From NCBI GenBank assembly GCA_020054475.1, contig JAHWGJ010000002.1, positions 38,100-102,099 of the forward strand: a DNA stretch of 64,000 bases, written 5' to 3'. This document shows, in pieces, positions 21,743 through 41,448 of this stretch. This DNA is from Thermoplasmata archaeon. Lineage in GTDB: Archaea; Thermoplasmatota; E2; DHVEG-1. The position numbers were made by a program, and so were the translations under genes. The stretch's first letter is position 1. Each line of letters begins with the position of its first letter. The notes beneath the pieces are model-generated. The model worked only from the letters and a program-made list of their open reading frames with translations, had not been told where the DNA came from and ran no database searches.

Positions 21743-21784
21743 CTAAACCATAAGTATATATTATCACCCTTTTATTAGATATTG

Positions 21785-24032: not shown

Positions 24033-25643
24033 TCATAGATATTTTGAGAGAATTGGTTCAAGAATTGGAAAACGAAGTATTAATTGATTAATTAGTATCT
24101 GTAAAGTATTATATGAGTGAGGCATACTGATTACAAGTGGATCTGACCATTCACTCTCACCCCCATGAATGTCCTTAGTTTTTGCTTTTATTTCATAATT
24201 CCCTCTACGAGTCCAAGTGTGAGATTCACTGCACTCTTCTCCAGAATCATAAGGTCCAATCCATTCCCTTTCAGTTCCATCATCCCAATCAAACTTATAG
24301 TAAATCTGATCTCCATCAGAATCATTTCCTATGCAAGTGTAACCATACTCTTCGCCTATCTTACCTTGTGAAGAACCAGATGGAGCTGATGGTTTATCTG
24401 GTCTTGAATTTTCAAAAGCAGCAAATTTTACTAACCATACATCTCTATTACCTGAACCATATGATTCGGTAAATCCAGCAATGATATATCCTCCATCAGA
24501 GGTTTGATGTACTTCAAATCCTTCATCTATATCAGTTCCTCCGAACATTACGCTCCATTCCGTGTTACCATAAATATCAGTCTTAATTAAAACAGCATCA
24601 TTTGAAATAAACCCAGTAACGATGAATCCTCCATCTTGAGTCTGTTCCACAGAGGTTCCAGAGTCAAAAGAATCTTGTTCTCCAAAATACTTACTCCATT
24701 CTTCATTTCCATTACTATCAATCTTTATTAAAGAAAGATCCTCCTCCTCATCAGAAGAATAAATTTGTGACTGCCCCGTGAGAATATAACCACCATCAAT
24801 CGTCTGCTGAATCCAAAGACAGCTATCTAGATATGATCCACCAATAAACGGTTTATTCCATTGTGTCTCACCATTACTATCAGTTTTAATAACTAAAACA
24901 TTACTAGATGTCCAACTATTATCTAAATAATTCCGCCCCGTTACAATATATCCTCCATCATCAGTCTGTTGTACTGACATTAAATATTCACCACCAATTG
25001 AATCACCAAAAGTTTTATTCCAATCCTCATTACCATTACTATCTGTTTTAATCAACCAGCCGTCACTACCACCTGAACCATAAGAACGAGTTGATCCCGC
25101 AATAATATAACCACTATCAGATGTCTGATGAACTGAAACACCTTGATCATCATCTGACCCTCCAAAAGTTTTATTCCAAACCTCATTACCATTACTATTC
25201 GTTTTACTCAGCCATATATCCATATTCCCAGCGCCAAAAGACGTTGTCAATCCAGTAAGTATATATCCTTCATCTAATGTCAGACTCACATCACCAAACC
25301 TGTCAATCCCAGATCCTCCAAAAGTTATATTCCAAACATCATTACCATTACTATCTGTTTTAATCAACCAGCCATCACCTCCAGTATCCCACCAAATAGC
25401 ATCTCTCCCTCCTGCAATGATAAATCCATTATCAAATGTTGGTTTAACACTTAGTCCAACATCAAACATCGATCCACCAAATGTTTTGTTCCACTCCTCT
25501 TCTGGACCATTAACCGAATTAATATGATACCCAAAAATATTTTTAACAGGTAAGGAATCTTTTTCTATTATTGATAAAGATGCAGTATCAACAATACAAA
25601 AACAAAGTATAAATACACTAAATATTGGTATTATTTTTTTCAT
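24033..25643 (-). CDS. secreted beta-propeller-repeat protein with the shared C-terminal PKD-like/SMP tail module
   Basis: 536 aa. Signal peptide, then about 7 repeats of the type GG..D.G.SV.QT.DGGYI..G.T.SYG.G..D.WL.KTDSNGN..WNKTFGG. Ends with ..YYKFDWDDG..GPYDSGEE..GNYEIKAKTKD..SEWSDPLVISMPHS..LILRFPILEPILSKYL. Its ATG overlaps the upstream stop (ATGA). Confidence 0.85.
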   Translation of the reverse strand: MKKIIPIFSVFILCFCIVDTASLSIIEKDSLPVKNIFGYHINSVNGPEEEWNKTFGGSMFDVGLSVKPTFDNGFIIAGGRDAIWWDTGGDGWLIKTDSNGNDVWNITFGGSGIDRFGDVSLTLDEGYILTGLTTSFGAGNMDIWLSKTNSNGNEVWNKTFGGSDDDQGVSVHQTSDSGYIIAGSTRSYGSGGSDGWLIKTDSNGNEDWNKTFGDSIGGEYLMSVQQTDDGGYIVTGRNYLDNSWTSSNVLVIKTDSNGETQWNKPFIGGSYLDSCLWIQQTIDGGYILTGQSQIYSSDEEEDLSLIKIDSNGNEEWSKYFGEQDSFDSGTSVEQTQDGGFIVTGFISNDAVLIKTDIYGNTEWSVMFGGTDIDEGFEVHQTSDGGYIIAGFTESYGSGNRDVWLVKFAAFENSRPDKPSAPSGSSQGKIGEEYGYTCIGNDSDGDQIYYKFDWDDGTEREWIGPYDSGEECSESHTWTRRGNYEIKAKTKDIHGGESEWSDPLVISMPHSYNTLQILINQLILRFPILEPILSKYL

Positions 25644-27832
25644 ATTTTAAACTCCAAAATTATCTTGAAAAAATTAAAAAATTGAGATTTCCCCCAAAAC
25701 CTATACAGTAATTTTAATAAACCTATATTTTCAAATTCTATACTTTTTGGCATACTAACTGTTAGAGGATCTGACCAGTCGCTTTGAACTCCGTTTTCAT
25801 CTTTTGCTTTAGCTTTAACTTGGTATCGTCCTTTATTGGCCCATGAATGATTCGCCTCTACCTGCTCTCCTGAATTATAAGGACCAATCCAGCCAGATAA
25901 ATTATCATCGCCCCAATTAAAAAGATAATATAGATCGTCTCCATCGGGATCAGTCGTTGATGATGAATATGAGTATAATATATCTGGTTCTACTGAAGAT
26001 TGACCTGATGGTTTTGCTGGTTTTTCTGGAACTTGAGAATGTTCTCCAATTACAAGTGTTGGATCTCCAAAGGATTGCCATGATTCAAGCGTAGCATAAT
26101 CACGAACCTCCATACTAGGATAAATATAATCCTCTATGGCCATAACCCACATTTCTCCAAATGTTATTGAATCTCCTTTATTTACACACTCTTTGTATGC
26201 TTCAAATATATTCATTGTAATTTCTTCAATAAATCCACCTGTTATACCTCTTCCACCCCCATTAGCATAACCAAAGGTAGTAACACCAAAAGAACCTATA
26301 CCACCACCATTAGGATTGGAAAGAAACGACCAACCAAAACAATTATCGATTACATTGTATTTACAAGTAGAACAAGCACCAAGAACAATAATGGGAAGTT
26401 TTTCATTATTTGTTAATTTTGCAGAATGTATATTAGAATATCCCCCAGGTATTGGAAGCCATTTGGATTCATCACCATGAGGATGTGTCGCCCATAAATT
26501 AGGATCACCATGCCCAGAAAAGTCAACAAATCCACATCCTTCATTGATGATATTAGATATTTCGTTGTTAAAAAAGACATTATCATCTAACATTCCCTTA
26601 GAAGCCCATATCCGCTTTGGGATAAAACCATCAAGGATACCAATTACAATATCATTTACATATTCTCCTTCATCAACCATCCAAGTATCATCAGTAAAGG
26701 TATCCCCTCCAATTACAACCAAATCAGTAAACCAATCTTTTGTAGATGCTCTATCTGTTTCATAATTAGTAATTTTCTCCACACATGTTTTTACTTCGGT
26801 TTCATTAATACAAGCAATTCGACCTATAGAAATATCAGGGTAGAGATCAACATCATCTGTTAAATGAGAATCGCCCCAATCATACTCAGCAAATACATTG
26901 TTTTGGTTTGTATCCCAACTTGCAAAATAACCATCAGCATCATATATATCAGCATAATAGAGATCGCTAATGAAGGATTCATCAACATCAAAATATTCTA
27001 AATATACATGTGTTTCTCTCGCTGGAAATGAATGATACCCACCGACTAATAATACTGAAGAAATACCCCATTGCTCTATAGCATTTTTAATAAAATATTT
27101 AACTTTCTCTGGATTATCTCGACCTTCAACGAGAAAGTACTGACTATCATATATTTCATTAAGAGCAACAAGTTTGGTTTCAATCCCTCTGTTATTCTTA
27201 TGATTGACCAAATCCTCTAATTCATCCGCATATTCAGAAGGGGAGAGAATAATATAATCATACACATCGGAGGATGATAAAGGTTGTTCAGATTCTTTGT
27301 ATTCTATTTCAATATCGATTTGTTCAACCCAATCTATAATGTTTTCGGAAGGATGATATTGAACTGGAAAAACCTGTACTTTAACAAACACGTTTATATC
27401 ATCTTTATTCAAACCAGTTCCAATATTATACTTATACCATTCAGAAGGGGCTATTGGAGATGAATCTGTTTTTATATTTTTTTGAATATTAGTATGCTCT
27501 AAAAGAATGGGCTCTGGTGCCACCATTATTTCTTTTGTTAATGTTTCTCTATGAATATTTCCAGGTTGGCATTTTATACTTTTAATTTGTGTTCCAAAAG
27601 GAAAGGTAAAGGTTTCAATTCTTGTTGGAACAATATAATGATTATATTTCATCAGTTTTGAATTTGCACCTTCAAGGTCTAATGAGATATATTCTTCATT
27701 CTCCTGTATCGAAAGTTGTGAAAAGGATAAAGTAATTTTTTCTTGTTTGAGTTCATCATCTGTTAAAGCAATAGCTCCAAATCCACTAAAAATAATAAAT
27801 CCAATTACTAATACTATGAATATTTTCTTCAT
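25640..27832 (-). CDS. secreted peptidase C25 (gingipain-like) with the shared PKD-like/SMP tail module
   Basis: C25 propeptide-like N-terminus, LLVGG, DFSGHGDPNLW (His) and IIVLGACSTCKY (Cys). C-terminus ..YYLFNWGDD..GPYNSGEQ..GRYQVKAKAKD..SDWSDPLTVSMPKS..LLYRFWGK. Start set at the internal ATG 27832 (MKKIFIVLV signal), which forms an ATGA overlap with the upstream stop. Confidence 0.85.
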   Translation of the reverse strand: MKKIFIVLVIGFIIFSGFGAIALTDDELKQEKITLSFSQLSIQENEEYISLDLEGANSKLMKYNHYIVPTRIETFTFPFGTQIKSIKCQPGNIHRETLTKEIMVAPEPILLEHTNIQKNIKTDSSPIAPSEWYKYNIGTGLNKDDINVFVKVQVFPVQYHPSENIIDWVEQIDIEIEYKESEQPLSSSDVYDYIILSPSEYADELEDLVNHKNNRGIETKLVALNEIYDSQYFLVEGRDNPEKVKYFIKNAIEQWGISSVLLVGGYHSFPARETHVYLEYFDVDESFISDLYYADIYDADGYFASWDTNQNNVFAEYDWGDSHLTDDVDLYPDISIGRIACINETEVKTCVEKITNYETDRASTKDWFTDLVVIGGDTFTDDTWMVDEGEYVNDIVIGILDGFIPKRIWASKGMLDDNVFFNNEISNIINEGCGFVDFSGHGDPNLWATHPHGDESKWLPIPGGYSNIHSAKLTNNEKLPIIVLGACSTCKYNVIDNCFGWSFLSNPNGGGIGSFGVTTFGYANGGGRGITGGFIEEITMNIFEAYKECVNKGDSITFGEMWVMAIEDYIYPSMEVRDYATLESWQSFGDPTLVIGEHSQVPEKPAKPSGQSSVEPDILYSYSSSTTDPDGDDLYYLFNWGDDNLSGWIGPYNSGEQVEANHSWANKGRYQVKAKAKDENGVQSDWSDPLTVSMPKSIEFENIGLLKLLYRFWGKSQFFNFFKIILEFKI

Positions 27833-29124
27833 ATTTTTATACCCCCAATAGCTTTTTTGCATAAGATATTGAATAATATTAAAGCTGCTCTATTACTAAA
27901 AAGTGTCCCAGTATTTGGTAAATTATTTACAAAAAATATTACACCCGTATCATTATAAGAGCAAGGGTAATACATGAAAGTCCATACACCAAAATTTCCA
28001 CCATTATGACCTGCAAGTTTTTCCTTACAAAATGAATAATCCATTTCTACCCATGCTAACCCGTAATCAGTTGTTTGAGAATCATCAAAATCAGGTGGTT
28101 GTATTCTATGCATCTCTATAATAGTATCTTTTTCAAGAATACTAATACCTTTGTAAACGCCATCGTTCATATGGGCGATTAAAAAATGTGAAAGGTCTAT
28201 AACAGTTGTATATAAACCACCAACAGGATAATGAAGCATTCGATGATATTTACTATCCGCAAATCCTTGTAGTGTATCAATTGTTAAATATTCCCCGTTT
28301 GAATAATAATATGGAATTGCAACATCATCAATATTTAAAGATGAAAGATTAAAACTAGTTTCATACATCATTAAAGGTAAAAAGATATGTTCATCGCAAT
28401 AATCAATGAAAGATTCTCCAGAAATTAATTCAACGAGATACGCAACTATATCAAAGTTTATATTCGCATAAATATGATACTCACCAGGTGGATCCTCAGG
28501 GTTCCAATATCCATAAAATGGAGGATCATACCATTTCCCATCTGGAGTTAAATAATCGATTATCCATGGGAAAGGATAGAAGGAAAATGGTGGATCACCC
28601 GAGAAATTAAACCAATACCATGGATGATAATCATCTATCAAAATTTCTGGAGCTAAACCAGAAGAATGCGAAAGCAACATCCGAAAAGTAATAGGAACAT
28701 CAGGGAAATTAGGATTTCTCAGAGTAAAGGATAGGTAATCATTGACATCATCATCAAGATCGAAAAATCCTTGTTCATAGAGTTGCATCAATGCTGTACC
28801 AGTAATTGTTTTAGATATTGAACCGATGTTGTAAATAGTGTATCTTGTGGAAGGTTTTTCATTTTCAAGATCATAAGAACCATAACCCTTTGACCATACT
28901 ACCTCATCATTATCAATAATACATGCTGAAAGGGATGGAAAATGAGCGAGTTTCATAAGGATAGTAACAACCTTATCAAAAAATATGTCATTTGAACCAG
29001 TTCTTTGTTCTACAAAATCATTTTCATAATAAGCGTATACCATTGCAGGTATTACAGAGAATACCATCAAAACTGCAATAAGCGAAACAACAGCTTTTTT
29101 ATATATTTCCATTTTTATTTTCAT
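27829..29124 (-). CDS. secreted beta-lactamase-fold serine hydrolase (class C / D-aminopeptidase-like)
   Basis: S-x-x-K motif (GSISKTITG), Y-x-N (YANIN) and an HNGG box. Signal/TM segment VVSLIAVLMVFSVIPAMVYA. Start set at ATG 29124, preceded by a GGAGGC RBS. Confidence 0.85.
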   Translation of the reverse strand: MKIKMEIYKKAVVSLIAVLMVFSVIPAMVYAYYENDFVEQRTGSNDIFFDKVVTILMKLAHFPSLSACIIDNDEVVWSKGYGSYDLENEKPSTRYTIYNIGSISKTITGTALMQLYEQGFFDLDDDVNDYLSFTLRNPNFPDVPITFRMLLSHSSGLAPEILIDDYHPWYWFNFSGDPPFSFYPFPWIIDYLTPDGKWYDPPFYGYWNPEDPPGEYHIYANINFDIVAYLVELISGESFIDYCDEHIFLPLMMYETSFNLSSLNIDDVAIPYYYSNGEYLTIDTLQGFADSKYHRMLHYPVGGLYTTVIDLSHFLIAHMNDGVYKGISILEKDTIIEMHRIQPPDFDDSQTTDYGLAWVEMDYSFCKEKLAGHNGGNFGVWTFMYYPCSYNDTGVIFFVNNLPNTGTLFSNRAALILFNILCKKAIGGIKI

Positions 29125-29399
29125 ATTTTTGCCTCCGCCATATAATCTTATATCAAAGAAATTGGATATATTATTATCAAGAAAAATCAACGTAATATAA
29201 GATAAGAATCATACTTGTAAAAATTAATAAAATTATTAACAAAATAAACTTTATTTTATTATTTTTTATTTTTTCCAATATTTTCTGATAATCATACATC
29301 TTTTTTTCTCCATTTTTTTATTATTTCTATTTATTCAAATCCAACAAATTTGATTTGACTCTACCAATTTCAATAGATTACAAATGATTTGTTTTAAAT

Positions 29400-29504
29400 T
29401 CAACTCATTCCCCCTGTAGCAAAAAATATTATTCCTCCAATTATGAAAGATACAACCATAATTATGAATAAACGTAATATTATCTTCTCAATATTAAATT
29501 TCAT
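29400..29504 (-). CDS. possible 34-aa single-pass membrane peptide
   Basis: [34 protein letters not shown]. Its ATG overlaps the end of the DUF1700-like gene. Below the ORF-track size cut-off. Confidence 0.3.
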   Translation of the reverse strand: MKFNIEKIILRLFIIMVVSFIIGGIIFFATGGMS

Positions 29505-30087
29505 TTAACTCCCCTGTAATTATTTTTATATTCATTTTTAGATATTTTATTATGATATTGTAAAACCATCTTGCAATATATCCATTAGCAATGAAAAATA
29601 ATAATCCAAACGCAGTTATTCCAAATCCTAAAAAGAATAATGCTATTGGATTTATTCCCCCTAGAGTTATACTTTCAATATATGGTGAAATAAAGGGTGA
29701 AACAATTGAAGCGATTCCTGCAAATATAATTGCTCCAGCTGCTAAAAAAAATCCAAATAAAAGAAATGATAATCCTATAAGTATTACTGACATAAATATT
29801 AAATTAAAAAATCCCAAACCAATTGTTGCATAAATAGCCCTTAAAAAATTAATAAGGGAGGATTTTTCTTCTGCTCGTCTTACAAGAAGATATGCTTTAG
29901 CATGTTTTGCAATAGTCTTTGGAGTTCCTAGGGATTCTACTATTTCTTCTTCATTTCTTCCTTTACTTAAGCCAATCTCAAAATGCTCTTCAAAATCTTC
30001 TATTATAGAATCAAAATCTTCCTTTGGTAATTGTTTTAGTTCTTCTCTAAATTCTTTAAAAAATTGCTTTTTATTCAAGCAAATCAC
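29494..30087 (-). CDS. DUF1700-like membrane protein (PadR partner)
   Basis: Soluble N-terminus [56 protein letters not shown] followed by 3-4 TM helices, overlapping the padR stop. Start uncertain (GTG 30087 or TTG 30078). Confidence 0.7.
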
Positions 30088-30391
30088 CTTCTAATAAAAT
30101 ATTTACTTTTAGATTAAATTCATTCCAATCTTTTCTTAATCTTTGACTTTGTTTTTTCCCCTTTAAAGTAACTTGATAATATTTTCTTGGAGGTCCTTCT
30201 TTTGATTCTCTAAGATAAGTATTTACAAATCCATCCACTTTTAATCGTCGTAATAATGGATAAATAGTTCCTTCAGATATTGAAATATTTTTAGAAATCT
30301 CAGTGACAAGTTCATATCCATAATAGTCCTTTTTTTGTAGATAAGTAAGTACGCATAACTCCAATACTCCTTTCTTAAATTGTGTATCCAT
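30071..30391 (-). CDS. padR: PadR-family transcriptional regulator
   Basis: 106-aa winged helix: [17 protein letters not shown]...I........[16 protein letters not shown]. Confidence 0.9.
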
Positions 30392-30480
30392 ATTGCATCT
30401 ATCTTTTAATAACAGGTATTATGTATTGCACAATAGTATATATGTTGAATTAATATAAATAGTTATTCATACAATCGATA

Positions 30481-30562
30481 TTTTGTCTCTCAGGATGCTT
30501 CAAAATATGATGTCTATTAATATCATAATCAGCAAGCGATAATGTTACATATGTTGCAATAC
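30481..30562 (+). repeat. island intergenic repeat, copy A (full length)
   Basis: TTTTGTCTCTCAGGATGCTTCAAAATATGATG..ATCATAATCAGCAAGCGATAATGTTACATATGTTGCAATAC aligns with copies B and E. Confidence 0.8.
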
Positions 30563-30644
30563 ATTTTATATTATTAGCATATTTATACTTACCAAAAGAT
30601 TTATTACATATGTATTACACATATTATAGTAAAAGGGAACCTCT

Positions 30645-30845
30645 ATGCCAATGAAATGTCAAATATGTAGAAAATTTTTTGGAATTGTATATAAAAAACA
30701 TAAATTAAAAGATGGTAAAATTGTTTGTATTGACTGTTTAGAGAGAATACATGAAAAAAACCACCATTCTCAAGAAATGACAAAAAAACATATATGTAAA
30801 TATTGTAATAATAAAATTCATAGAGTAAGTAAAGGATGGTCATAG
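30645..30845 (+). CDS. small zinc-ribbon protein
   Basis: 66 aa with three CxxC pairs (CQIC, CIDC, CKYC), lying downstream of repeat copy A. The antisense ORF 30643-30879 is low-complexity junk. Confidence 0.4.
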   Translation: MPMKCQICRKFFGIVYKKHKLKDGKIVCIDCLERIHEKNHHSQEMTKKHICKYCNNKIHRVSKGWS

Positions 30846-30899
30846 TTGGATAGTTGAAAAATAATCCCGCGAATCTCACTTATAGAATTTCTAATATAA

Positions 30900-30923
30900 A
30901 CATCATATTCAGCAAGTAATAAT
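30900..30923 (+). repeat. island intergenic repeat, copy H (module 2 fragment)
   Basis: ACATCATATTCAGCAAGTAATAAT matches the core of copies A, B, E, F and G. Confidence 0.6.
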
Positions 30924-30926
30924 TCA

Positions 30927-31895: not shown

Positions 31896-31995
31896 TTATA
31901 TAACAATACGTAATGTTATATATATAATAATTACGTTTTGTCAGAAAATATAGTAATTATAGTTTATATATGCTAATTTTGATAATAAAATAGGA

Positions 31996-32217
31996 ATGAA
32001 AAATATGGATAGAATAAATCTTACAATTGCTTTAATGTGGATATTTCTTATAATTACATTAATATTAAGTATTTTCTATAATTTAAATCTCTTCTTTTTT
32101 ATCATACTATTTTCTATAATTATTCTTTTAACAATTTTTCTTATTTTTGAATATCAACCTGACTCTAACCAGAATGAATCTGTAAAAAATAATGAAAGAA
32201 TCGAGGTGAAAAAATGA
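31996..32217 (+). CDS. small two-TM membrane protein
   Basis: 73 aa, two hydrophobic helices, and an ATGA overlap with the next gene. Confidence 0.45.
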   Translation: MKNMDRINLTIALMWIFLIITLILSIFYNLNLFFFIILFSIIILLTIFLIFEYQPDSNQNESVKNNERIEVKK

Positions 32218-33419: not shown

Positions 33420-35011
33420 AAGGATATAAAATTAATATTTTAAAAGGGGAAAAAACAATTGAAAAAATTACATGTTTTATATTATTAATTATATTACTTT
33501 CATCTGTATTTCCATCTGTAATATCCTCAATTAAATTCCATGAATCTGATTTAGGTATTGAATGGAGTAAAACATATGGGAGCTCAGAATGGGATTTCTT
33601 ATTTAATGTAGATGAAACAACAGATGGAGGTTATTATACTTCAGGTACAACGGAAATTTCAAATATGTATTATGGTTGGATAATGAAATTAGATTCAAAA
33701 GGACATATTGAATGGGAAATAATAGAAGAAGATACTCGATGTTCAAATCTTAATTACCTTTTAGTATATAATGCAATTCAGACAAAAGATGAGGGATTTA
33801 TCATTTGTGGTAGTACTCAAGATGATGAAAATAATTTGGTTGGATTTGTTATTAAATATGATTTAGATGGAAATAAGCAATGGAGTAGAATATATGGTGA
33901 CAAGGATTCTAATCAGATTACAAATGTTCTTGAATTAGATCAAGGATATATGGCTATTGGTATTGAATCAATAAATGATGATTATTATAGTCCACTAATA
34001 AAGATTGATAATGATGGTTTAGTTGAATGGAAGAAAAATTTTAATTATGGCGAAAATCCCGATATGTTTTGGGGTATTTGCAGTACAAACGATAATGGAT
34101 TTATATTATCTGGAACAACTGGTTGGGCTCAACCAAATGCTGATATTTGGCTTGTAAAAACAGATGCTGAAGGAAATTTGATTTGGAATAAGACGTATGG
34201 CGGAGACGCTGCTGAGGAATTTAGACCAAATAAATGTAGTATAGCATCTGATGGTGGTTTCATTATTGGTTGTGAATCCAACTCTTTTGGATCTGGAGAT
34301 CTAGATGGTTGGATTTTTAAAATTGATTCCGATGGAAATATGCTTTGGGATAAAACATTTGGAGGGGAAATGCAGGATCGGATTTGGGGGATGGATAATA
34401 CAGTTGATGATGGATTTATTTTTTGTCTTAATAAAAATTATGACAGGAGACCAAATACTGAGATTGATTTGATAAAATTAAATAGCAATGGAGAGGTAGA
34501 TTGGATTGTAAATTATGCAACCCCTAAAGTATGTATGGGTTATCAGATAAGTCAAACAAGTGATAATGGTTTTATTTTAGCATTAAGAATTAATGGAGGA
34601 TATGGATCATCTAATGCGGATGGAGCCTTAGTAAAAATATCAGAAAAAATTAATAATAAACCCGATAGACCTATTCAACCTCAAGGAGAATCTAATGGAA
34701 AAACGGGTAAGGAATATACATATTCTACAGTTACAATTGACCCAGAAGGTGAACAACTGTATTATTTTTGGGACTGGGGTAACGGCAATAACAGTGGTTG
34801 GATTGGCCCATATGATTCTGGTGAAGAATGTTTGGTTTCTTATAACTGGAAATCTGATGGTAATTATTCAATTAGAGTAAAATCAGAGGATAATCTTGGA
34901 TATGAGAGCGAATGGTCAGATCCTCTCGTTATAAGTATGCCAAAAAATAAGGATCGGTCTCCATTATTTTATTGGTTTTTATCAAAATTAGTATCTTTTT
35001 TCATTTTTTAG
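33416..35011 (+). CDS. secreted beta-propeller-repeat protein with the shared PKD-like/SMP tail module
   Basis: 531 aa. Repeats of the type DGG(F/Y)I..G.T.S.G.G..D.W..K.D..GN..W.KT(F/Y)GG. C-terminus ..YYFWDWGNG..GPYDSGEE..GNYSIRVKSED..SEWSDPLVISMPKNK..FYWFLSKLVSFFIF. ATGA overlap with the upstream gene. Confidence 0.85.
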   Translation: MKGYKINILKGEKTIEKITCFILLIILLSSVFPSVISSIKFHESDLGIEWSKTYGSSEWDFLFNVDETTDGGYYTSGTTEISNMYYGWIMKLDSKGHIEWEIIEEDTRCSNLNYLLVYNAIQTKDEGFIICGSTQDDENNLVGFVIKYDLDGNKQWSRIYGDKDSNQITNVLELDQGYMAIGIESINDDYYSPLIKIDNDGLVEWKKNFNYGENPDMFWGICSTNDNGFILSGTTGWAQPNADIWLVKTDAEGNLIWNKTYGGDAAEEFRPNKCSIASDGGFIIGCESNSFGSGDLDGWIFKIDSDGNMLWDKTFGGEMQDRIWGMDNTVDDGFIFCLNKNYDRRPNTEIDLIKLNSNGEVDWIVNYATPKVCMGYQISQTSDNGFILALRINGGYGSSNADGALVKISEKINNKPDRPIQPQGESNGKTGKEYTYSTVTIDPEGEQLYYFWDWGNGNNSGWIGPYDSGEECLVSYNWKSDGNYSIRVKSEDNLGYESEWSDPLVISMPKNKDRSPLFYWFLSKLVSFFIF

Positions 35012-35036
35012 AATAGATTTAAGGAGTTTGGAATGA

Positions 35037-35204
35037 GTGATTAAAGAAATCCCTTCAATAAAAAAAATGTTATTTGGGATTATGATTATGTTAATAGGAG
35101 GTTTTATTATGCTAAATGAATCTCTAAACCTTCGTGGAATTGAATTTTTTTTTATACTTGGCGGGTTTTTAATGGGTATTTTAGGGTTATTTTTTAATGA
35201 TTAA
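35037..35204 (+). CDS. possible 55-aa two-TM membrane peptide
   Basis: GTG start 11 nt after AAGGAG. Hydrophobic sequence ..MLFGIMIMLIGGFIML..FFFILGGFLMGILGLFF. Below the ORF-track cut-off. Confidence 0.3.
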   Translation: MIKEIPSIKKMLFGIMIMLIGGFIMLNESLNLRGIEFFFILGGFLMGILGLFFND

Positions 35205-35251
35205 ATATGAGTGAATAATATGAATAAAATATTATTTAATGAGGTGAAAAA

Positions 35252-36439
35252 ATGAGAAAAATTGGACGAATAATATCAGTTATAATATTTTTTATTATTT
35301 TAATACAATTAGCAGGCGTTATTCTTTATAGTGAAAAAAATGATGTAATCGCTGATGTCTTGATTTATACTGGCCCTGGTGCATGGGGAACAGGTTATCG
35401 TGCTTTTGAAAAATTTCTTGATTATAAAAATCTTACATGGTTTGAATGCAATCATAACTTTATAAATAATAATGATTTAGAGGGAAAATTTAAGGTAATT
35501 CATTTTCCTGGTGGATCTCCAGGCGAATACAGTAATTCAATAAATCTTGCGGGTCATAAAAATATTAGAGATTTTGTTTCTTCAGGTGGGGGATATGTTG
35601 GAATTTGTGCGGGGGGTTATTTTGCAGCAGATATAAACATCTGGGAAGGAAACACATATGATATTCCATTGAATTTATTTTCAGGAACAGCATATGGGGC
35701 AATTGACGAAATAATACCTTGGCCAGGATATAAAATGACTAATATCACAATAAATAAATCTAATCCAATTAACCTTTATGAACCAATTTCACAGACAATA
35801 TTATATTATGGAGGCGCAGCATTTTACCCAAATGAAGGACAACAAATTAATATTATAGGAACTTACGACTCATTAAACAACGATCCTGCTATTATAAATT
35901 TAAATTATGGAGATGGGCGAGTATTATTATTTGGACCGCATCCTGAAATCGAAGAAGATAGCGATCGTGATGGAGAAACCACTTTTCATTTTTTAGAAGA
36001 TAATGGTACAGATTGGAATCTGTTATGGACTTCAATGGATTGGTTAATGAAACGAGAAATTTCAGAACCGCCTATGTCTGTACAACCTGATAAACCTGAT
36101 ATAAAAGGTATGTTGAATGGAAAAAATGGAATTGAATATAACTATACAATTTATACTAATGATCCTGATTTGGATGAAGTATATTATTATATTGACTGGG
36201 ATGATAATTCAATAAGTGATTGGTTTGGTCCATATAAATCAGGAGAAATAATTCAAATTACTCACTCTTGGAATAAAATCGGTAAATATAGTGTACGAGC
36301 CAAAGCTAGAGATATGAACAATTTAGAAAGTGAATGGTCAGATCCTCTCGTTATAAGTATGCCAAAAAATAAAATCAATATGAATTTAATAATTTGGAGG
36401 TTTCCATTATATAAATATCTTTTATCAATTATTGCGTAG
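35252..36439 (+). CDS. secreted class-I glutamine-amidotransferase-like (BPL_N-type) protein with the shared PKD-like/SMP tail module
   Basis: N-terminal TM/signal segment, then VIHFPGGSPGEY and a GGGYVGICAGGYFA nucleophile-elbow pattern. C-terminus ..YYYIDWDDN..GPYKSGE..GKYSVRAKARD..SEWSDPLVISMPKNK..IIWRFPLYKYLL. Confidence 0.7.
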   Translation: MRKIGRIISVIIFFIILIQLAGVILYSEKNDVIADVLIYTGPGAWGTGYRAFEKFLDYKNLTWFECNHNFINNNDLEGKFKVIHFPGGSPGEYSNSINLAGHKNIRDFVSSGGGYVGICAGGYFAADINIWEGNTYDIPLNLFSGTAYGAIDEIIPWPGYKMTNITINKSNPINLYEPISQTILYYGGAAFYPNEGQQINIIGTYDSLNNDPAIINLNYGDGRVLLFGPHPEIEEDSDRDGETTFHFLEDNGTDWNLLWTSMDWLMKREISEPPMSVQPDKPDIKGMLNGKNGIEYNYTIYTNDPDLDEVYYYIDWDDNSISDWFGPYKSGEIIQITHSWNKIGKYSVRAKARDMNNLESEWSDPLVISMPKNKINMNLIIWRFPLYKYLLSIIA

Positions 36440-36441
36440 AA

Positions 36442-36499
36442 AAGAAAGGAAAACAGAGCTATAATGCTGCAATACTGCTATTATCTGTTTTCCTTTCTT
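36442..36499 (+). terminator. 16-bp perfect hairpin immediately after the 35252-36439 gene
   Basis: AAGAAAGGAAAACAGA (36442-36457) pairs perfectly with TCTGTTTTCCTTTCTT (36484-36499), leaving a 26-nt loop. The hairpin begins 3 nt after the TAG stop. Confidence 0.5.
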
Positions 36500-36653
36500 C
36501 CCTCCCAAATAAACATCCGTTAACGGTATAATTAATAGTACTAAATATTCTATTATGTAGATAAATGAAGGGAGAATTATTGTAATTCCGAATTATAATA
36601 ATTCTTTTTGATATTACTAGATGGAATAAGGAATATAAGGGGAAAGAAAATAA

Positions 36654-37034
36654 ATGAGAAAACATCTAATTGTGTCTGGAATTGTATTTGTTTTACTGAT
36701 GGTAAATTTAAGTGGATGTAATGATATACTAGAAGCACCTAAAATTGAATTTATTCAAGAAGATGGGTGGCTTATAGTCAGCTTCGTTGAAAAATCAATT
36801 TTATCTTGGGATAATATCAATATTTCACTCTCGTCAGGTAAATATTCGGATATTGGTTTTCATTATAGTCCTGAAATATCTTCTCTTATACCATATGGTA
36901 ATGGAAACTCCTGCCCTAGTGATTGGGGTGTTATCGTTGAAGATAACGGTATCTTTTTTCAACTTATTGATGCAATTGTAACGTTATACTGGATACCTAC
37001 TAATGTATCCTTTGGAGAATGGGATTTTACATAA
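36654..37034 (+). CDS. small secreted/lipoprotein-like protein
   Basis: 126 aa with signal peptide and lipobox-like LSGC (VFVLLMVNLSGCND). Confidence 0.5.
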   Translation: MRKHLIVSGIVFVLLMVNLSGCNDILEAPKIEFIQEDGWLIVSFVEKSILSWDNINISLSSGKYSDIGFHYSPEISSLIPYGNGNSCPSDWGVIVEDNGIFFQLIDAIVTLYWIPTNVSFGEWDFT

Positions 37035-37078
37035 AATTAATCATTCTTTTTCTCTTAAGCACTAATAAAACTTTAATA

Positions 37079-37160
37079 TTTTATCTCTCAGGAGGCTTCA
37101 AAAATATGATGTAATGCTACATCATAATTAGCAATAATTAATGTTACAAGTGTTACAATT
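37079..37160 (+). repeat. island intergenic repeat, copy B (full length, contains 9-bp palindrome)
   Basis: TTTTATCTCTCAGGAGGCTTCAAAAATATGATGTAATGCTACATCATAATTAGCAATAATTAATGTTACAAGTGTTACAATT. The palindrome TATGATGTA-ATGC-TACATCATA lies at 37105-37126. Confidence 0.8.
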
Positions 37161-37217
37161 ATTATCCATATGATTAAATAGAAATCTTCAAAAATCAAAC
37201 TTAGTTCCAAATGTTAC

Positions 37218-38243
37218 ATGTCTAGATTATTTATATCATATTCAAGATTATTTCGCTTATCAGGACTAATCGGTTTCTCAATAAATCCTGTATTTGGAGC
37301 ATTAAGTCTATCTCAAATTGGAGTACAAGTCAATCTCTTAACATTGTTTTTATTATTATTGATTGGAGTCTTTAAAACAATACATGGAAGTGTCATGAAT
37401 GATTATTTTGATATTGAAGTTGATAAACTTTCCCATAATCCAAATCTGAGGCCTCTCGTTATAGGTGAAATATCAAAAAATACAGCAATTATAATTATAT
37501 TACTGACTGTCGTATTCATATTTGCAATATTTTTTGGTTATTTTTACAGAAACCAACCTTCATTTTACTATGCTTTTATTTGTATAATCCTTGCTGCAAT
37601 TGCAGGGTTTATTTATAATAGATATGGCAAAAGATTTGCCGGCTCCGATTTTCTCGTTGGATTTTCTGAAGGAATTTTTGTTCTTATTGGAGCTTATCTA
37701 GTTTCCCCGGATGGTCAACTTAGTATTTTTACTTGGGTTATTTTCTTATTGGTCTTTAATCAGTATTTGTTTATGAATATGATTATTGGTGGGATGAAAG
37801 ATGCTGACCATGATTTTCTACTTAAAGTAAAAAATGTTGCAATTAAAACAGGTGTAATATTAAAAAAGGATAAAAAAATCCATCTCCCTATTAGTTTTAT
37901 TATCCTAGGATTGATCATCAGGTTTTTTTCAGCTTTTCTCATATTTGTACCCTTCATATTCTATAAAGTGTATTTTGAACTATGGGAAATTATTGTAATA
38001 ATACTGGTTGTTGGTATGGTTCTTTTATTAACATTTAAATTACTTAGTCTTAAGAGTTTTGTTCAACGTAAAAAAGTTCTTGGTCTTTTCGCAATTCAGG
38101 GAGTTCTTCGTTACAGTTTTGTTCCATTTTTATTATTGCCTGTGATTGGACTTGCTTCAACTGTTGGGTTAATTCTATTACCCCTTCTTTGGTATGTTTT
38201 GATAATGTTTAAATCAAGACAGGATATAGCTCCAAATTTGTAA
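37218..38243 (+). CDS. UbiA-family membrane prenyltransferase (copy 1)
   Basis: 341 aa with about 8-9 TM helices. First Asp-rich motif NDYFDIEVD (N-x3-D-x3-D), second KDADHD. Confidence 0.8.
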   Translation: MSRLFISYSRLFRLSGLIGFSINPVFGALSLSQIGVQVNLLTLFLLLLIGVFKTIHGSVMNDYFDIEVDKLSHNPNLRPLVIGEISKNTAIIIILLTVVFIFAIFFGYFYRNQPSFYYAFICIILAAIAGFIYNRYGKRFAGSDFLVGFSEGIFVLIGAYLVSPDGQLSIFTWVIFLLVFNQYLFMNMIIGGMKDADHDFLLKVKNVAIKTGVILKKDKKIHLPISFIILGLIIRFFSAFLIFVPFIFYKVYFELWEIIVIILVVGMVLLLTFKLLSLKSFVQRKKVLGLFAIQGVLRYSFVPFLLLPVIGLASTVGLILLPLLWYVLIMFKSRQDIAPNL

Positions 38244-38265
38244 TAAAGGACAAGCAAATAGCATT

Positions 38266-38301
38266 TTGTCTCTCAGGAGGCTTCAAAACAAAGTTTTTTG
38301 T
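38266..38301 (+). repeat. island intergenic repeat, copy C (module 1), forming a 36-bp perfect inverted repeat with 40193-40228
   Basis: TTGTCTCTCAGGAGGCTTCAAAACAAAGTTTTTTGT is the exact reverse complement of 40193-40228. Confidence 0.85.
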
Positions 38302-38569
38302 GTTGAATGGATTTTATTTAATTAACAATAATAAGTTTTTTAATATATTCTGATAAAGGAGTAATGGAAGAATTTTAGTAAAAGCGAGGGAAAAAAGGAG
38401 AACAGTAGATAAGTAAAAAACCATTGTTACTGCCCCCTTTCTTCTATAATTATCGGCATCAAAATATAATATAAAAGGATTTCTATCAAAATCCTGTTTT
38501 CTCCTTATTAGTTTCAAGATATCTATTTTGTAAATATAATTATATATATCATTCAAATATGGAAATTTA

Positions 38570-38833
38570 ATGGAAAGTAAAGATTTTGAAAATATTAATG
38601 ATAAGTTAGATAGAATTGAAAGAAAAATTAACAAGGTTCAAAATGAATTATCTTTTTCATCAATCTTTACTCTTGCTGTTTTTGAATCTACATTGGCAGC
38701 TGCTCTTTTAAGTTTTGGATTTTCAGTTAATGATGAGATTAGTATATGAGTTGGATATTTCTTATTTGCACTTGCAGTATTTTGCTGGTTTTATCTATTT
38801 TATGATGGACATAAAAAACGAAAAAATAGATAA
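38570..38833 (+). pseudogene. small membrane-protein ORF interrupted by an in-frame TGA
   Basis: MESKDFENINDKLDRIERKINKVQNELSFSSIFTLAVFESTLAAALLSFGFSVNDEISI-TGA(38747)-VGYFLFALAVFCWFYLFYDGHKKRKNR. It reads as one coiled-coil plus two-TM protein and ends 17 nt before attR. Confidence 0.3.
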
Positions 38834-38849
38834 TATTATGAACTTTCTT

Positions 38850-38869
38850 TTCAAATCCGGGAGGCGGGA
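38850..38869 (+). repeat. attR: copy of the tRNA-Tyr 3' end
   Basis: TTCAAATCCGGGAGGCGGGA is identical to 21723-21742. Confidence 0.8.
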
Positions 38870-40192: not shown

Positions 40193-40228
40193 ACAAAAAA
40201 CTTTGTTTTGAAGCCTCCTGAGAGACAA
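40193..40228 (-). repeat. island intergenic repeat, copy D (module 1), the inverted partner of 38266-38301
   Basis: The reverse complement equals TTGTCTCTCAGGAGGCTTCAAAACAAAGTTTTTTGT. Confidence 0.85.
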
Positions 40229-40464: not shown

Positions 40465-41448
40465 CTATATTAGGAATTCTAGAATTGGAAATCGTTGAAT
40501 TAATCTTAATATCCAAGGATTGAAATCATTGATTGATTTGCTTCTTGGCATTGAAACAGATAACGGATCTGACCATTCGCTCTGAGCTCCATTACTATCT
40601 TTTGCTTTTACTCTGATCTCATAGGTTCCCTGTGAAGTCCATGAGTGAGATGTACTAACTGTTGCTCCAGATGCATAGTAACTTCCACTGTTATCATCCC
40701 ATTCATCAACAACATTGTCTCCATTCCAGTCCCAAGCATACTTGACTTTATCGCCATCTGGATCAGTTGTAGATGAGGAATATGTATATGACTTTCCTAT
40801 TTCTCCCGAAGTTGGGCCAGAAGGAGTACTTGGATTAAAAGGAGGAAAATTTCCACCATCATCAGATAACTTTGCAACAAAAACATCACTATATCTTTGG
40901 CTTTGGCTGGTTAGAGTGTATGGGCCAAAATCTGCAATACCACTGAAATATCCAGTTACTATTGTGGAGCCGTCCGAAAGCGTTACGATTGCCTGGCCTG
41001 CATCCTTATAATACATCCCACCTGCACGTTTCCCCCATGCGATAGTGCCGTCGGAATTGTACTTGGCCAAGAAAATATCGGTACTACCATCTGAAACCAG
41101 AACAGTTTCGGAATTTTCACCTTTCCCGAATGTCGCTGAACCACTGAAATATCCAGTTACTATTGTGGAGCCGTCCGAAAGCGTTACGATTCCCTGGCCT
41201 GCATCCTCAGACGTCCCACCTGCCCCTTTTGCCCATTGCCAGTCCCCGTTTTTATTTAATATATTACTTTCTCCTTCTTTATGTCTATTAAAAAACGATT
41301 TATAATCAGCAGTAGTTGAACTACTAGTTATACCTTTATAAATGGAAATATTGGATTTAACATCATTTAATTCTACACATCCATTTACTGAAAAAGCAGT
41401 CGCAATCAACAGCGTCAAAACAAAAATTCCAATAATTTTCTTCATCAT
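40465..41448 (-). CDS. secreted SBBP-like beta-propeller-repeat protein with the shared PKD-like/SMP tail module
   Basis: 327 aa. Signal peptide, duplicated GQ(G/A)IVTLSDGSTIVTGYFSG units, and C-terminus ..KYAWDWNGD..GTYEIRVKAKD..SEWSDPLSVSMPRSK..ILRLIQRFPILEFLI. Confidence 0.85.
   Translation of the reverse strand: MMKKIIGIFVLTLLIATAFSVNGCVELNDVKSNISIYKGITSSSTTADYKSFFNRHKEGESNILNKNGDWQWAKGAGGTSEDAGQGIVTLSDGSTIVTGYFSGSATFGKGENSETVLVSDGSTDIFLAKYNSDGTIAWGKRAGGMYYKDAGQAIVTLSDGSTIVTGYFSGIADFGPYTLTSQSQRYSDVFVAKLSDDGGNFPPFNPSTPSGPTSGEIGKSYTYSSSTTDPDGDKVKYAWDWNGDNVVDEWDDNSGSYYASGATVSTSHSWTSQGTYEIRVKAKDSNGAQSEWSDPLSVSMPRSKSINDFNPWILRLIQRFPILEFLI

Follow-up and report, generated by a model that had tools for sequence, protein, structure and literature searches.

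A common C-terminal element on otherwise unrelated secreted proteins is known from several systems. The PGF-CTERM/archaeosortase A signals are strictly C-terminal and are shared by numerous secreted surface proteins of archaea whose heads are unrelated; in the T9SS CTD/PorU system of Bacteroidota, secreted hydrolases, C25 peptidases among them, have an Ig-like beta-sandwich close to the C-terminus; and dockerin-cohesin systems have a constant short C-terminal module that is borne by many enzymes in species-specific flavours. The archaeal proteins described here are like these systems in the traits just named, and C25-family enzymes, to which PorU itself belongs, are abundant in the genomes that encode them. 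A further point of comparison is provided by PBP5 and PBP6 of E. coli, low-molecular-weight penicillin-binding proteins with C-terminal amphipathic-helix membrane anchors.

The MBG-D/Thermoprofundales are among the most abundant marine-sediment archaea and are thought to live on detrital protein, which they break down by means of peptidases outside the cell, C25 "gingipains" above all; the lineage expresses such exo-enzymes highly (PMC6461988). Models of sediment carbon and nitrogen remineralisation, and the reading of enzyme assays, depend on whether these exo-enzymes leave the cell or remain bound to it.

Six window proteins and their PKD core

Six ORFs of the window (the whole 64-kb stretch of DNA that was analysed) encode proteins in which unrelated heads are joined to a common C-terminal module of ~120 aa, at the coordinates given in the original prediction:

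24033..25643, (-) strand: ORF1, 536 aa; predicted signal peptide, SBBP-type beta-propeller repeats, PKD core, tail
24129-24404, (-) strand: ORF1 PKD core
24036..24128, (-) strand: ORF1 tail SMPHSYNTLQILINQLILRFPILEPILSKYL; hinge and helix-FP-helix, variant B-like
25640..27862, (-) strand: ORF2, 740 aa; C25 peptidase, PKD core, tail
25757-26032, (-) strand: ORF2 PKD core
25643..25756, (-) strand: ORF2 tail SMPKSIEFENIGLLKLLYRFWGKSQFFNFFKIILEFKI; degenerate, without FP
32214..33419, (+) strand: ORF3, 401 aa; predicted signal peptide ending ...FGLAC, AAT/C45-type Ntn-hydrolase-like head, PKD core, tail
33030-33305, (+) strand: ORF3 PKD core
33306..33416, (+) strand: ORF3 tail SMPKNLHHINTLIDMINYFFNNFYKYFKSIFSVEVYT; degenerate, strongly amphipathic (hydrophobic moment, muH, 0.70)
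33416..35011, (+) strand: ORF4, 531 aa; SBBP-type beta-propeller, PKD core, tail
34658-34933, (+) strand: ORF4 PKD core
34934..35008, (+) strand: ORF4 tail SMPKNKDRSPLFYWFLSKLVSFFIF; short, degenerate
35252..36439, (+) strand: ORF5, 395 aa; BPL_N/class-I glutamine-amidotransferase-like head, PKD core, tail
36080-36355, (+) strand: ORF5 PKD core
36356..36436, (+) strand: ORF5 tail SMPKNKINMNLIIWRFPLYKYLLSIIA
40465..41448, (-) strand: ORF6, 327 aa; delta-60/SBBP-like repeats, PKD core, tail
40555-40830, (-) strand: ORF6 PKD core
40468..40554, (-) strand: ORF6 tail SMPRSKSINDFNPWILRLIQRFPILEFLI; canonical variant C

The last ~120 aa of the six proteins align with 21 invariant columns and a mean column identity of 54%, and a profile built from them matched 528 proteins at E<=1e-3, the best 120 of the 528 all at <1e-38. 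The similarity of the six modules is far beyond chance. The heads are also of the types originally proposed: Pfam identified the C25 peptidase of ORF2 (Peptidase_C25, 1.3e-53) and the GATase1-like head of ORF5 (BPL_N, 1.1e-23), Pfam/NCBIfam identified SBBP/delta-60-type beta-propeller repeats in ORF1, ORF4 and ORF6, and the Cys-Ntn hydrolase of ORF3 is a weak AAT/C45 match (23.5 bits, cutoff 23.2). The repeat units of ORF1 (~52 aa) are seen also at the DNA level, as repeat family D1. All six N-termini are signal-peptide-like, with a basic n-region followed by a hydrophobic h-region, and a crude h-region test was passed by 82 of 91 complete family members versus 118 of 293 background ORFs. The mechanical ORF2 begins at 27862; its second Met, at 27832, gives a cleaner signal peptide and is probably the true start.

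The AF2 model of the module has a pLDDT of 89, rising to >95 across the beta-sandwich. The top Foldseek match of its core is PDB 4XED (44% identity, TM 0.91, rmsd 1.3 A), and the six-tail profile matches the PKD domain of 4XED at 2e-32 and that of ColH at 3e-7. The PF00801 cutoff of 23.5 bits is passed by ORF3 (42.4), ORF4 (24.1) and ORF6 (23.6), with ORF1, ORF2 and ORF5 slightly under it. As judged by both HMM match (Pfam PF00801/PF18911) and Ig-like beta-sandwich fold, the core of the module is a genuine, ordinary PKD subfamily whose structure is already solved and which is widely used as an internal repeat too; the "PKD-like core" of the original prediction thus stands as a PKD fold but not as a novelty. 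The solved domain belongs to an M14-like peptidase of Thermoplasmatales archaeon SCGC AB-540-F20, an MBG-D single-cell genome; no paper describing it was found in the literature searched. Its construct was cut at ...TMPK, the same hinge as in the window module, leaving the removed tail structurally uncharacterised, and because the construct stops at MPK the PKD domain must fold without the tail. The PKD core is therefore the known part of the module, and the new part is the ~30 aa that follow it, which are uncatalogued in the libraries searched.

The helix-FP-helix tail

The tail consists, in order, of a hinge (SMP-K/R-x-K/R after a PKD domain), an N-cap (N/T-x-P), an amphipathic helix, (F)P, a second amphipathic helix and the C-terminus, with the consensus among homologues ...SMPKNKxINTPFLQFLENHPxxFPLLRQLLGL or ...FLERLMERFPILEQIL. 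It extends 26-36 aa after MP; FP, which is carried by >90% of canonical tails, sits 8-17 aa from the end, and common endings are ...LLGL, ...EFLL and ...ILQ, without an Arg/Lys run. No Pfam or NCBIfam model, all CTERM sorting models included, matched the tail, and eight bare tails run against NCBIfam at E<=10 gave no match, whereas the control tail of the window protein 16829-20758 was matched in the same run. Nor was a description of the tail found in the searched domain libraries and papers, in keeping with the original suggestion of a candidate new system.

One reading of the tail, for which it counts that the PKD domain folds without it and that the window's own copies are largely degenerate, is that it has no specific function, being either a C-terminal extension that this PKD subfamily tolerates and that evolves fast, or no more than a capping helix of the domain. 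However, a tail-only profile is significant by itself (E=3.5e-7 to 1e-2) against 5.8e9 (5.8 billion) sequences, length is constrained and FP nearly invariant, and the tail is bound to the C-terminus: the module ends <=20 aa from the stop codon in about 100 of 108 module ORFs, a set of 150 multi-PKD proteins contains no internal tail match, and the hinge is present after 101 of 124 PKD copies at the terminus but after 0 of 209 internal ones. The tail is joined also to C25 domains without any PKD, as in the peptidase of locus L011 and in a family of ~630-aa C25 proteins, of which 0/120 have a PKD domain while the C-terminal tail is matched in 61/120 at E<=0.01 and 94/120 at E<=1. Together, the tail-only profile, the lack of internal tails, the terminal-only hinge and the PKD-less tails largely refute the absence of function, which we consider very unlikely, and the helix-FP-helix tail is shown to be autonomous, strictly C-terminal, lineage-wide and absent from current domain libraries. 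The SMP(K/R)xK motif, originally listed as part of the signal, holds as the PKD-to-tail junction but not as a universal component, since the hinge of the C25-direct family is acidic (EDGDDP...); this weakens the cleavage after SMPKxK that had been proposed.

Recurrence beyond the source genome, a condition of the original prediction, is extensive. The combination of constant tail and exchangeable heads is found again in hundreds of proteins, spread over many MAGs of archaea; all 72 genome loci are from uncultured archaeal MAGs, nearly all labelled Thermoplasmatota, and the whole module has 2,718 cluster representatives at E<=1e-30. The cargo heads are exo-enzymes (C25, M28, S8, NosD/beta-helix, propellers), with C25 the commonest (20 tail-bearing proteins). 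Tails are more alike within genomes (identity 0.404) than between them (0.275; 0/5000 permutations), and sequence composition accounts for 0.024 of this 0.128 difference, whereas the PKD core does not differ significantly (0.510 within versus 0.506 between) and identities of core and tail are uncorrelated (r=0.07). The C25-direct tail of L011 shares the flavour of the PKD-linked tails in its genome. Such genome-specific concerted evolution would be the pattern expected of a recognition or docking element. Gene conversion could also be behind the within-genome similarity, instead of co-evolution with a partner; ORF4 and ORF5 have an identical patch (36/36 nt) at the junction.

These features also bear on a true sorting signal, by which a dedicated enzyme would cleave in or near the hinge and attach the cargo covalently to lipid, glycan or S-layer, in analogy to archaeosortase/PGF-CTERM or PorU/T9SS-CTD; the enzyme could be a C25 of the lineage, such as the tail-less paralogue at 53471-55384. 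Strict C-terminal position, narrow length window, concerted evolution and a hinge specific to terminal PKD copies all agree with this, as do the prominence of C25 heads, the retention of the tail-less C25 in the syntenic backbone, and the partial matches of these proteins to the PorU model NF033707. Those matches (ORF2, 76.3 bits; 53471-55384, 62.8; the L011 C25, 33.8) fall in a range of 34-76 bits versus a cutoff of 420, however, so that a PorU-type C25 sortase was not identified, and the C25 proteins resemble cargo rather than machinery. The hinge varies with the preceding domain, and the tail lacks the TM segment and terminal basic cluster that are present in every known membrane-sortase signal. 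Within +/-10 kb in the 72 loci no partner, receptor, conserved neighbour gene or candidate processing enzyme of the kind originally sought was found to co-localise with the tail genes, ABC ATPases being the sole recurrent non-cargo family, at background frequency. We therefore regard covalent sorting as unlikely.

That the terminal stretch is not a clean TM helix, as first noted, is borne out by its hydrophobicity. The maximum Kyte-Doolittle 19-residue value (KD19) is 0.28-1.39 for the six window tails versus 2.28 and 2.49 for two PGF-type tails of the window, and among 186 tails the median is 0.83 and 4% reach 1.6. The tail is too polar for a TM helix: charged or His residues make up ~20% of it over a 20-25-residue span, its centre is kinked by a Pro and its end is not basic. 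Although it is rich in hydrophobic and aromatic residues and genuine TM segments are found at the end of a small number of homologues, we hold an ordinary transmembrane anchor at the C-terminus to be extremely improbable. Amphipathicity is modestly above that of shuffled controls (median muH 0.64 versus 0.52), with low mean hydrophobicity. AF2 modelling, one of the steps originally recommended, gave helix-break-helix in both models made on two different tail variants (pLDDT about 85; in ORF6, helix 111-119, Pro, helix 122-126), and the charges of helices 1 and 2 are anti-correlated (rho -0.25, p=4e-4; de-duplicated, -0.26, p=0.004), as expected of a hairpin. From predicted secondary structure and charge statistics we infer that the two helices pack in this way.

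Two short amphipathic helices with charge complementarity and conserved polar positions (E, R/H, Q) could also be an oligomerisation or complex-assembly peptide, the hairpins bundling or binding a secreted scaffold in a cellulosome-like manner and not being primarily a cell anchor. The same tail flavour on many different hydrolase heads per genome would suit such a role, as would the operon-like clustering of tail-bearing cargo genes in the window. Yet some members of this PKD subfamily have, where the tail would follow the PKD domain, a TM segment with a basic end or a PGF-type signal (for example L026, L006 and 9/150 representatives), and the protein P0043 combines tail helix 1 and Pro with a TM segment in a chimera; that such anchors can stand in for the tail points to anchoring and not to assembly. 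The loci also showed no scaffold-like protein in which receptor modules are repeated, and we think an assembly role distinctly doubtful.

A tRNA-integrated island

Five of the six genes lie on, and may have come in with, a 17.1-kb island that is integrated at a tRNA gene and has the following features:

21653..21742, (+) strand: intron-containing tRNA, anticodon GTA/Tyr by eye, the integration target (Rfam tRNA, 51.6 bits; missed by ARAGORN)
21723-21742, (+) strand: attL, the last 20 nt of the tRNA
21782..22990, (+) strand: tyrosine-recombinase integrase with C-terminal zinc ribbon (Phage_integrase, 8.8e-23)
21743..38869, no strand: integrated island, 17.1 kb, supported by att repeat, integrase and the tRNA–Trm5 adjacency in relatives
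38850..38869, (+) strand: attR, exact copy of the tRNA 3' end, TTCAAATCCGGGAGGCGGGA, in unrelated flanks

The integrase, which adjoins the tRNA, is XerA-like (108.7 bits, below the equivalog cutoff of 220). The 20-mer direct repeat at 21723-21742 and 38850-38869 is exact while its flanks are unrelated, and Trm5 starts 66 nt past the attR copy. In about 70 of 120 contigs Trm5 instead lies 40-100 nt downstream of the same tRNA 3' half, an uninterrupted site, and several of these contigs share upstream synteny. With Trm5 45-60% identical, the relatives concerned are distant; a search for an exact empty junction in a close relative found none. Homologs of island ORFs in the empty-site loci were confined to the integrase (2 loci) and to C25 and Lrp/AsnC (2 loci each, elsewhere on the contigs), with none for the other island ORFs. 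Besides ORF1-ORF5, the island carries a beta-lactamase-family protein, PadR+HAAS, an Lrp/AsnC regulator, a small lipoprotein-like ORF and a UbiA prenyltransferase, and no viral or conjugative genes were recognised on it in the Pfam scan.

ORF6 is outside the island, in a second non-syntenic stretch. The idea that the signal travels on mobile DNA is thus correct for five of six genes in the window genome but does not extend to the family in general. The island shows that a genome can take up cassettes of such exo-enzymes in whole blocks. Most tails of the window itself are degenerate: ORF6 alone (1/6) passes the tail-only HMM at E<=0.01, and the FP kink is absent from 3/6. The island copies may be decaying, or may represent a lineage-specific flavour.

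Proposed role and comparison with known systems

The tail may sort, dock or simply anchor its cargo, and the most likely role, judged from sequence and models, is non-covalent surface retention. On this view the products of the six genes would be hydrolases and binding proteins that an uncultured thermoplasmatote, probably of the MBG-D/Thermoprofundales kind, exports by the Sec route. After export the two tail helices would fold into a small hairpin, which would attach by its hydrophobic face, without a covalent bond, to some component of the envelope, and the PKD beta-sandwich would be a stalk or spacer; as docking partner we lean towards a genome-encoded protein, the alternative being the outer face of the membrane. 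The enzymes would thereby be tethered to the cell on the PKD stalk, without a TM segment and without archaeosortase-type processing. In its entirety, from helix-FP-helix tail on PKD stalk to five genes on the island, this account is offered tentatively, its chances being somewhat short of even.

A bolder version would make the tail the recognition signal of a hitherto undescribed surface-sorting system in Thermoprofundales-like archaea, with a genome-specific receptor or processing enzyme, perhaps a conserved tail-less C25 acting in a PorU-like way, fixing dozens of exo-enzymes per cell to the envelope while cargo genes are swapped on integrative islands and their tails re-tuned to the host flavour; we hold this to be a long shot. 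Non-covalent retention by the tail itself is a testable hypothesis for how wall-less or S-layered Thermoplasmatota might keep enzymes at their surface without TM anchor or archaeosortase. The tail is also a practical marker for the surface proteome of the lineage, covering the 2,718 module representatives and the PKD-less C25 family; a tail HMM is missing from annotation pipelines, which now label such proteins only "PKD domain-containing" or "hypothetical".

The window also encodes two chromosomal surface proteins, 16829-20758 and 46827-48917, that had been assigned to PGF-CTERM. Both have PGF-type tripartite ends, but the specific assignment did not hold: in NCBIfam the former matches Loki-CTERM (28.7 bits, cutoff 19.9) and Heimdall-CTERM (25.6, cutoff 24), with PGF_CTERM at 12.3, below its cutoff of 24.5, and the latter passes no model. 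No archaeosortase was found among the ORFs scanned within the window. Unlike PGF-CTERM (TIGR04126) and its Loki- and Heimdall-CTERM relatives, the tail has no PGF motif, TM helix, terminal Arg/Lys cluster or HMM match, and it does not share the motif/TM/basic-cluster layout of sortase-type signals; at least one homologue, L006_4004_9397, has a PGF-type end at the very post-PKD position where the tail sits elsewhere. Unlike in the T9SS, the window beta-sandwich is a PKD and not the terminal element, and the host is an archaeon; Por_Secre_tail/CTD models (Pfam, NCBIfam) gave no match on the six proteins. The likeness to dockerins, also suggested originally, does not extend to the sequence, as neither full proteins nor bare tails matched PF00404 at E<=10, the Ca-binding repeat signature is absent and a cohesin-like scaffold did not come to light.

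For a lipid-binding version of retention, the closest functional analogy is the PBP5/PBP6-type anchor, which is uncleaved, has no TM segment and lies at the outer face of the cytoplasmic membrane. As modelled, the tail would fall in this PBP5-like class, since it is short, helical and amphipathic, forms the very end of an exported protein and has no TM segment. Unlike PBP5/PBP6, to which it has no sequence relationship, it has two helices, its FP kink and certain polar positions are conserved, and its flavours differ from genome to genome; these features suggest that its partner is a protein.

Shared module and PKD core

Six ORFs of the window end, as the original prediction had it, in one common module made up of a PKD core, the hinge SMP(K/R)xK and a tail of about 30 residues, and their ~120 C-terminal residues align with 21 invariant columns. 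The heads that precede the module are indeed unrelated:

24033-25643, minus strand: ORF1, SBBP / delta-60-type beta-propeller
25640-27862, minus strand: ORF2, C25 peptidase (Pfam 1.3e-53)
32214-33419, plus strand: ORF3, AAT/C45 Ntn-hydrolase-like, weak match
33416-35011, plus strand: ORF4, SBBP / delta-60-type beta-propeller
35252-36439, plus strand: ORF5, BPL_N / GATase1-like domain (Pfam 1.1e-23)
40465-41448, minus strand: ORF6, SBBP / delta-60-type beta-propeller

By a crude hydrophobicity heuristic, all six begin with a basic n-region and continue into a hydrophobic h-region. The signal peptide end of ORF3 reads ...FGLAC-TGF, in which the cysteine could be either the N-terminal nucleophile of the Ntn hydrolase or a lipobox cysteine. 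Marker genes of the window (unsplit rpoB, rpoA', rpoA'', nusA, ribosomal proteins L1 and L10, PolB) are archaeal, and its RpoB groups at ≥90% identity with "Thermoplasmatota archaeon" proteins.

The core itself, a beta-sandwich, belongs to a PKD subfamily that was already known. The Pfam PKD model is weak on the six cores, three of which pass the gathering score. AlphaFold2 (AF2), given an alignment of 75 sequences, returned a confident sandwich (mean pLDDT 89 overall and >95 in the core), and the best Foldseek match in the PDB was 4XED, the PKD domain of an M14-like peptidase from Thermoplasmatales archaeon SCGC AB-540-F20 (44% identity, TM 0.91, rmsd 1.3 Å). With a profile of the six tails, 4XED scored E=2e-32 and the PKD domains of clostridial ColH 3e-7. 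The last residues of the 4XED construct are ...LEVTMPK, and therefore the tail was cut off by the depositors and the PKD domain folds without it. The subfamily comprises 22,200, 12,130 and 2,718 cluster representatives at E≤1e-3, 1e-10 and 1e-30, respectively (1.84 billion searched), and is frequently an internal tandem repeat, with a maximum of 51 copies per protein. Table 3 of PMC6461988 gives M09B (collagenase, MEROPS) calls to several highly expressed Thermoprofundales proteins annotated merely as "PKD domain-containing protein"; because the PKD profile matches ColH PKD, some of these calls may stem from the PKD domain, not from a collagenase catalytic domain.

The helix-FP-helix tail as an autonomous element

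Tail patterns were read after WSDPLxISMP in 120 listed database matches and 108 ORFs from 72 genome loci, and include three variants:

Variant A: ...KNKxINTPFLQFLENHPxxFPLLRQLLGL
Variant B: ...FLERLMERFPILEQIL...
Variant C: ...NPWILRLIQRFPILEFLL

F and P are kept in >90% of sequences in two alignments (A4/A5) restricted to the residues after SMPKxK. The tail-only profile built from these reached significance among 5.8 billion proteins (E=3.5e-7 to 1e-2), in a search that covered short proteins only and so speaks to the significance of the motif and not to the frequency of PKD-less tails. This result refutes the outcome that would have undone the original prediction, namely a PKD end followed by random sequence, and we consider it improbable that the tail has no specific function. 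Within the window, ORF6 alone passes the tail-only HMM at E≤0.01; RFP(I/L) is retained in the tails of ORF1 and ORF5, and the FP kink is missing in ORF2-4.

The position of the tail is strictly C-terminal. The distance from MP to the protein end is 26-36 residues (10th-90th percentile, n=186) and that from FP is 8-17 residues, and in about 100 of the 108 ORFs the module ends ≤20 residues from the stop codon. Among 150 multi-PKD representatives there were no internal tail matches, and MPK plus tail formed the terminus of 47. The hinge, as x-[MILV]-P-[KR], was found after 101 of 124 terminal PKD copies and after none of 209 internal ones and is therefore part of the tail, which rules out SMPK as a piece of the PKD fold. 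Searches of full proteins and bare tails with Pfam and NCBIfam at E≤10 returned no named sorting domain and no tail model, and a literature search yielded no account of either the tail or 4XED.

The original prediction that the stretch is not a clean transmembrane (TM) helix held up: the median maximum KD19 (Kyte-Doolittle, 19 residues) of the tails is 0.83, with only 4% reaching 1.6, and charged residues or His make up ~20%, as against KD19 values of 2.28 and 2.49 for the two PGF-type tails of the window. A TM anchor was rejected on these grounds and is, in our view, highly improbable. AF2 models of ORF6 and of the database protein P0044, which carry different variants, both show the sandwich, a linker of 8-10 residues, a helix, a break at Pro and a second helix, with tail pLDDT of about 85. 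The tails are moderately amphipathic (median hydrophobic moment muH 0.64 vs 0.52 for shuffled tails). Between the two helices, net charge is negatively correlated (Spearman -0.25, p=4e-4; de-duplicated -0.26, p=0.004), a modest effect that would fit an antiparallel hairpin.

That the tail is an autonomous element is clear from proteins that carry it with no PKD domain. In one genome locus (L011:2614-4503), a C25 peptidase (Pfam residues 203-592) is directly followed by ...DKPLLNFLENHPYMFPLLQKLLGL, and as a query it retrieved a family of ~630-residue C25 peptidases (577 matches), of which 0 of 120 inspected had the PKD module. These proteins end in ...FGDPTLVIEDGDDPxxIPVNxP and then the same helix-FP-helix tail, stopping a median of 42 residues past GDPTL; the tail HMM matched the C-terminus of 61 of 120 at E≤0.01 and of 94 at E≤1. 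Thus, the minimal unit is the helix-FP-helix. SMP(K/R)xK is the junction that follows PKD, and the junction of the C25 family is acidic (EDGDDP). The idea that SMPKxK is a universal cleavage site is weakened by this acidic hinge. A further C25 peptidase, with a C25 propeptide, lies at 53471-55384 in a conserved syntenic backbone adjoining PolB and ribosomal-protein genes; it is tail-less, shares the ending ...GDPSLKVGGYP with its orthologue in a related contig (L088) and is only about 30% identical to the C25 family with tails. Three C25 architectures thus coexist in the lineage: tail-less, C25 plus tail, and C25 plus PKD plus tail.

The tail recurs outside this genome, at 72 confirmed genome-collection loci, all of them in uncultured archaeal MAGs. 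Nearly all are labeled Thermoplasmatota, Thermoplasmata or Thermoplasmatales (two have broader labels only), and they include the recognized MBG-D / Thermoprofundales bins M9B1D, SM1-50 and B24_G9, with up to nine tail loci in one genome; one short tail match is labeled Promethearchaeota. C25 is the most frequent head (20 tail-bearing proteins), and further heads are M28 and S8 peptidases, NosD/beta-helix, fn3, propellers and unknown domains. According to PMC6461988, C25 and "PKD domain" proteins rank with the most strongly expressed extracellular proteins of Thermoprofundales MAGs.

A tRNA-integrated island and a second variable stretch

The final 20 nt of an intron-containing tRNA have an exact copy (attR) at 38850-38869 whose flanks are unrelated, and a tyrosine integrase lies downstream of the tRNA. 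Trm5 begins 66 nt past the attR copy in the window and 40-100 nt past the tRNA in about 70 of 120 metagenomic contigs with the same tRNA 3' half; related contigs also keep the upstream order of FAD-oxidoreductase, glycosyltransferase and surface protein. The att repeat, the integrase and the Trm5 spacing in relatives hence identify 21743-38869 (17.1 kb, containing ORF1-ORF5 and regulators) as an insertion. An exact empty-site junction gave 0 matches in metagenomes, and a broader tRNA-based scan gave empty sites, in relatives that are distant (Trm5 45-60% identical). In the metagenomic contig L179 a 31%-identical integrase lies 91 nt past the same tRNA, so the site has been used repeatedly. Features of the island and its tRNA are:

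21653-21742: intron-containing tRNA, 90 nt, the integration target of the island; the apparent intron follows the anticodon loop, and the anticodon reads GTA by eye (Rfam; missed by ARAGORN)
27829-29190: secreted beta-lactamase / D-Ala-D-Ala-carboxypeptidase-family protein, co-oriented with and overlapping ORF2
29494-30391: PadR regulator and HAAS-domain membrane protein
30927-31895: double-domain Lrp/AsnC regulator
36654-37034: small ORF with a clear lipobox-like ...LSGC
37218-38243: UbiA prenyltransferase

No viral or conjugation genes were recognized on the island. A 26-nt motif, ATTTTGTCTCTCAGGAGGCTTCAAAA, occurs three times, intergenically and only on the island (30480-30505, 37078-37103 and 38263-38288), with similarity between the first two copies reaching about 80 nt; it could be a common operator or promoter, a PadR gene being adjacent, or a small repeat element.

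ORF6 lies in a second non-syntenic stretch, 40073-46826, between Trm5/tRNA-Thr and a conserved gene at 46827, where relatives have 1-3 kb. It also contains a UbiA prenyltransferase, a radical-SAM protein, a 540-residue secreted protein of unknown family and a secreted pyroglutamyl peptidase (C15), and a ~45-nt motif, ...CATTTGTAGCATTATYACTTGSTGAWTATGATGT, occupies four consecutive intergenic regions (41525-41569, 42721-42751, 43778-43822 and 45501-45548). The suggestion that the tail travels on mobile DNA is thus borne out for ORF1-ORF5, but not for the ORF6 stretch, where no integrase or att repeat was seen, nor for the family at large: of the other 72 tail loci a single one has a homologous integrase, no tail genes were found on IMG/VR viral contigs, and mobility is therefore a property of this locus.

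Possible role of the tail

We infer, tentatively and at somewhat less than even confidence, that the tail retains proteins at the cell surface: tail-bearing proteins would be exported by Sec, the PKD domain would serve as a stalk, and the helix-FP-helix hairpin would dock non-covalently on an envelope component, keeping the enzymes on the cell surface. A protein partner is favored because polar positions are conserved and tail flavors are genome-specific; the alternative would be in-plane binding on the outer membrane face. Tail identity is 0.404 within genomes vs 0.275 between genomes, a difference reached in 0 of 5000 label permutations, and residue shuffling inside tails yields 0.024 of the 0.128. 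No comparable difference is seen in the neighboring PKD cores (0.510 vs 0.506), whose identity does not correlate with that of the tails (r=0.07). In genome CAZXHI the PKD-less C25 peptidase has the ENHPxMFPLL..LLGL flavor, as do the PKD-linked tails there, and its orthologues in other genomes have other flavors. A recognition element that is matched to a common partner would be expected to show such likeness. Alternatively, the likeness may reflect tail-restricted gene conversion: the modules of the adjacent ORF4 and ORF5 are 62% identical in nucleotides, and 34907-34942 of ORF4 and 36329-36364 of ORF5, at the core-tail junction, are identical at 36 of 36 nt (12 codons, EWSDPLVISMPK, third positions included), a patch that points to local gene conversion or a hotspot of recombination. 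That the tail is instead a complex-assembly peptide we think unlikely.

The tail might also be a cleaved sorting signal leading to covalent attachment, possibly read by a C25-type enzyme, a reading that is possible but doubtful. All-against-all clustering of about 700 ORFs from the 72 loci revealed no recurrent non-cargo neighbor or candidate enzyme, only cargo families, with ABC ATPases at background level. Nothing in related loci corresponds to the two UbiA prenyltransferases that adjoin tail genes in the window, and so these were dropped as candidates. An analogy with PorU was kept merely as a low-probability reading, the C25 domains scoring well under PorU cutoffs.

Comparison with known C-terminal signals gives a mixed result for the two large surface proteins of the window (16829-20758 and 46827-48917), which had been assigned PGF-CTERM. 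Both have PGF-type tripartite tails, but the first is under the TIGR04126 (PGF_CTERM) cutoff, scoring with Loki-CTERM (28.7 bits) and Heimdall-CTERM (25.6 bits), and the second passes no NCBIfam model. As a Thermoplasmatota tail thus scores best against Asgard-named models, these are evidently not lineage-specific. Signals of known kinds also occupy the post-PKD position in the same PKD subfamily: a TM segment with a basic end in 9 of 150 representatives and in L026_3_2789, and a PGF-type signal in L006_4004_9397 (both homologous proteins). In the chimeric database protein P0043, the hinge, tail helix 1 and Pro lead into a true TM segment with a basic end. That this slot is at times filled by a TM or PGF-type signal argues for the tail as one among several exchangeable means of cell retention.
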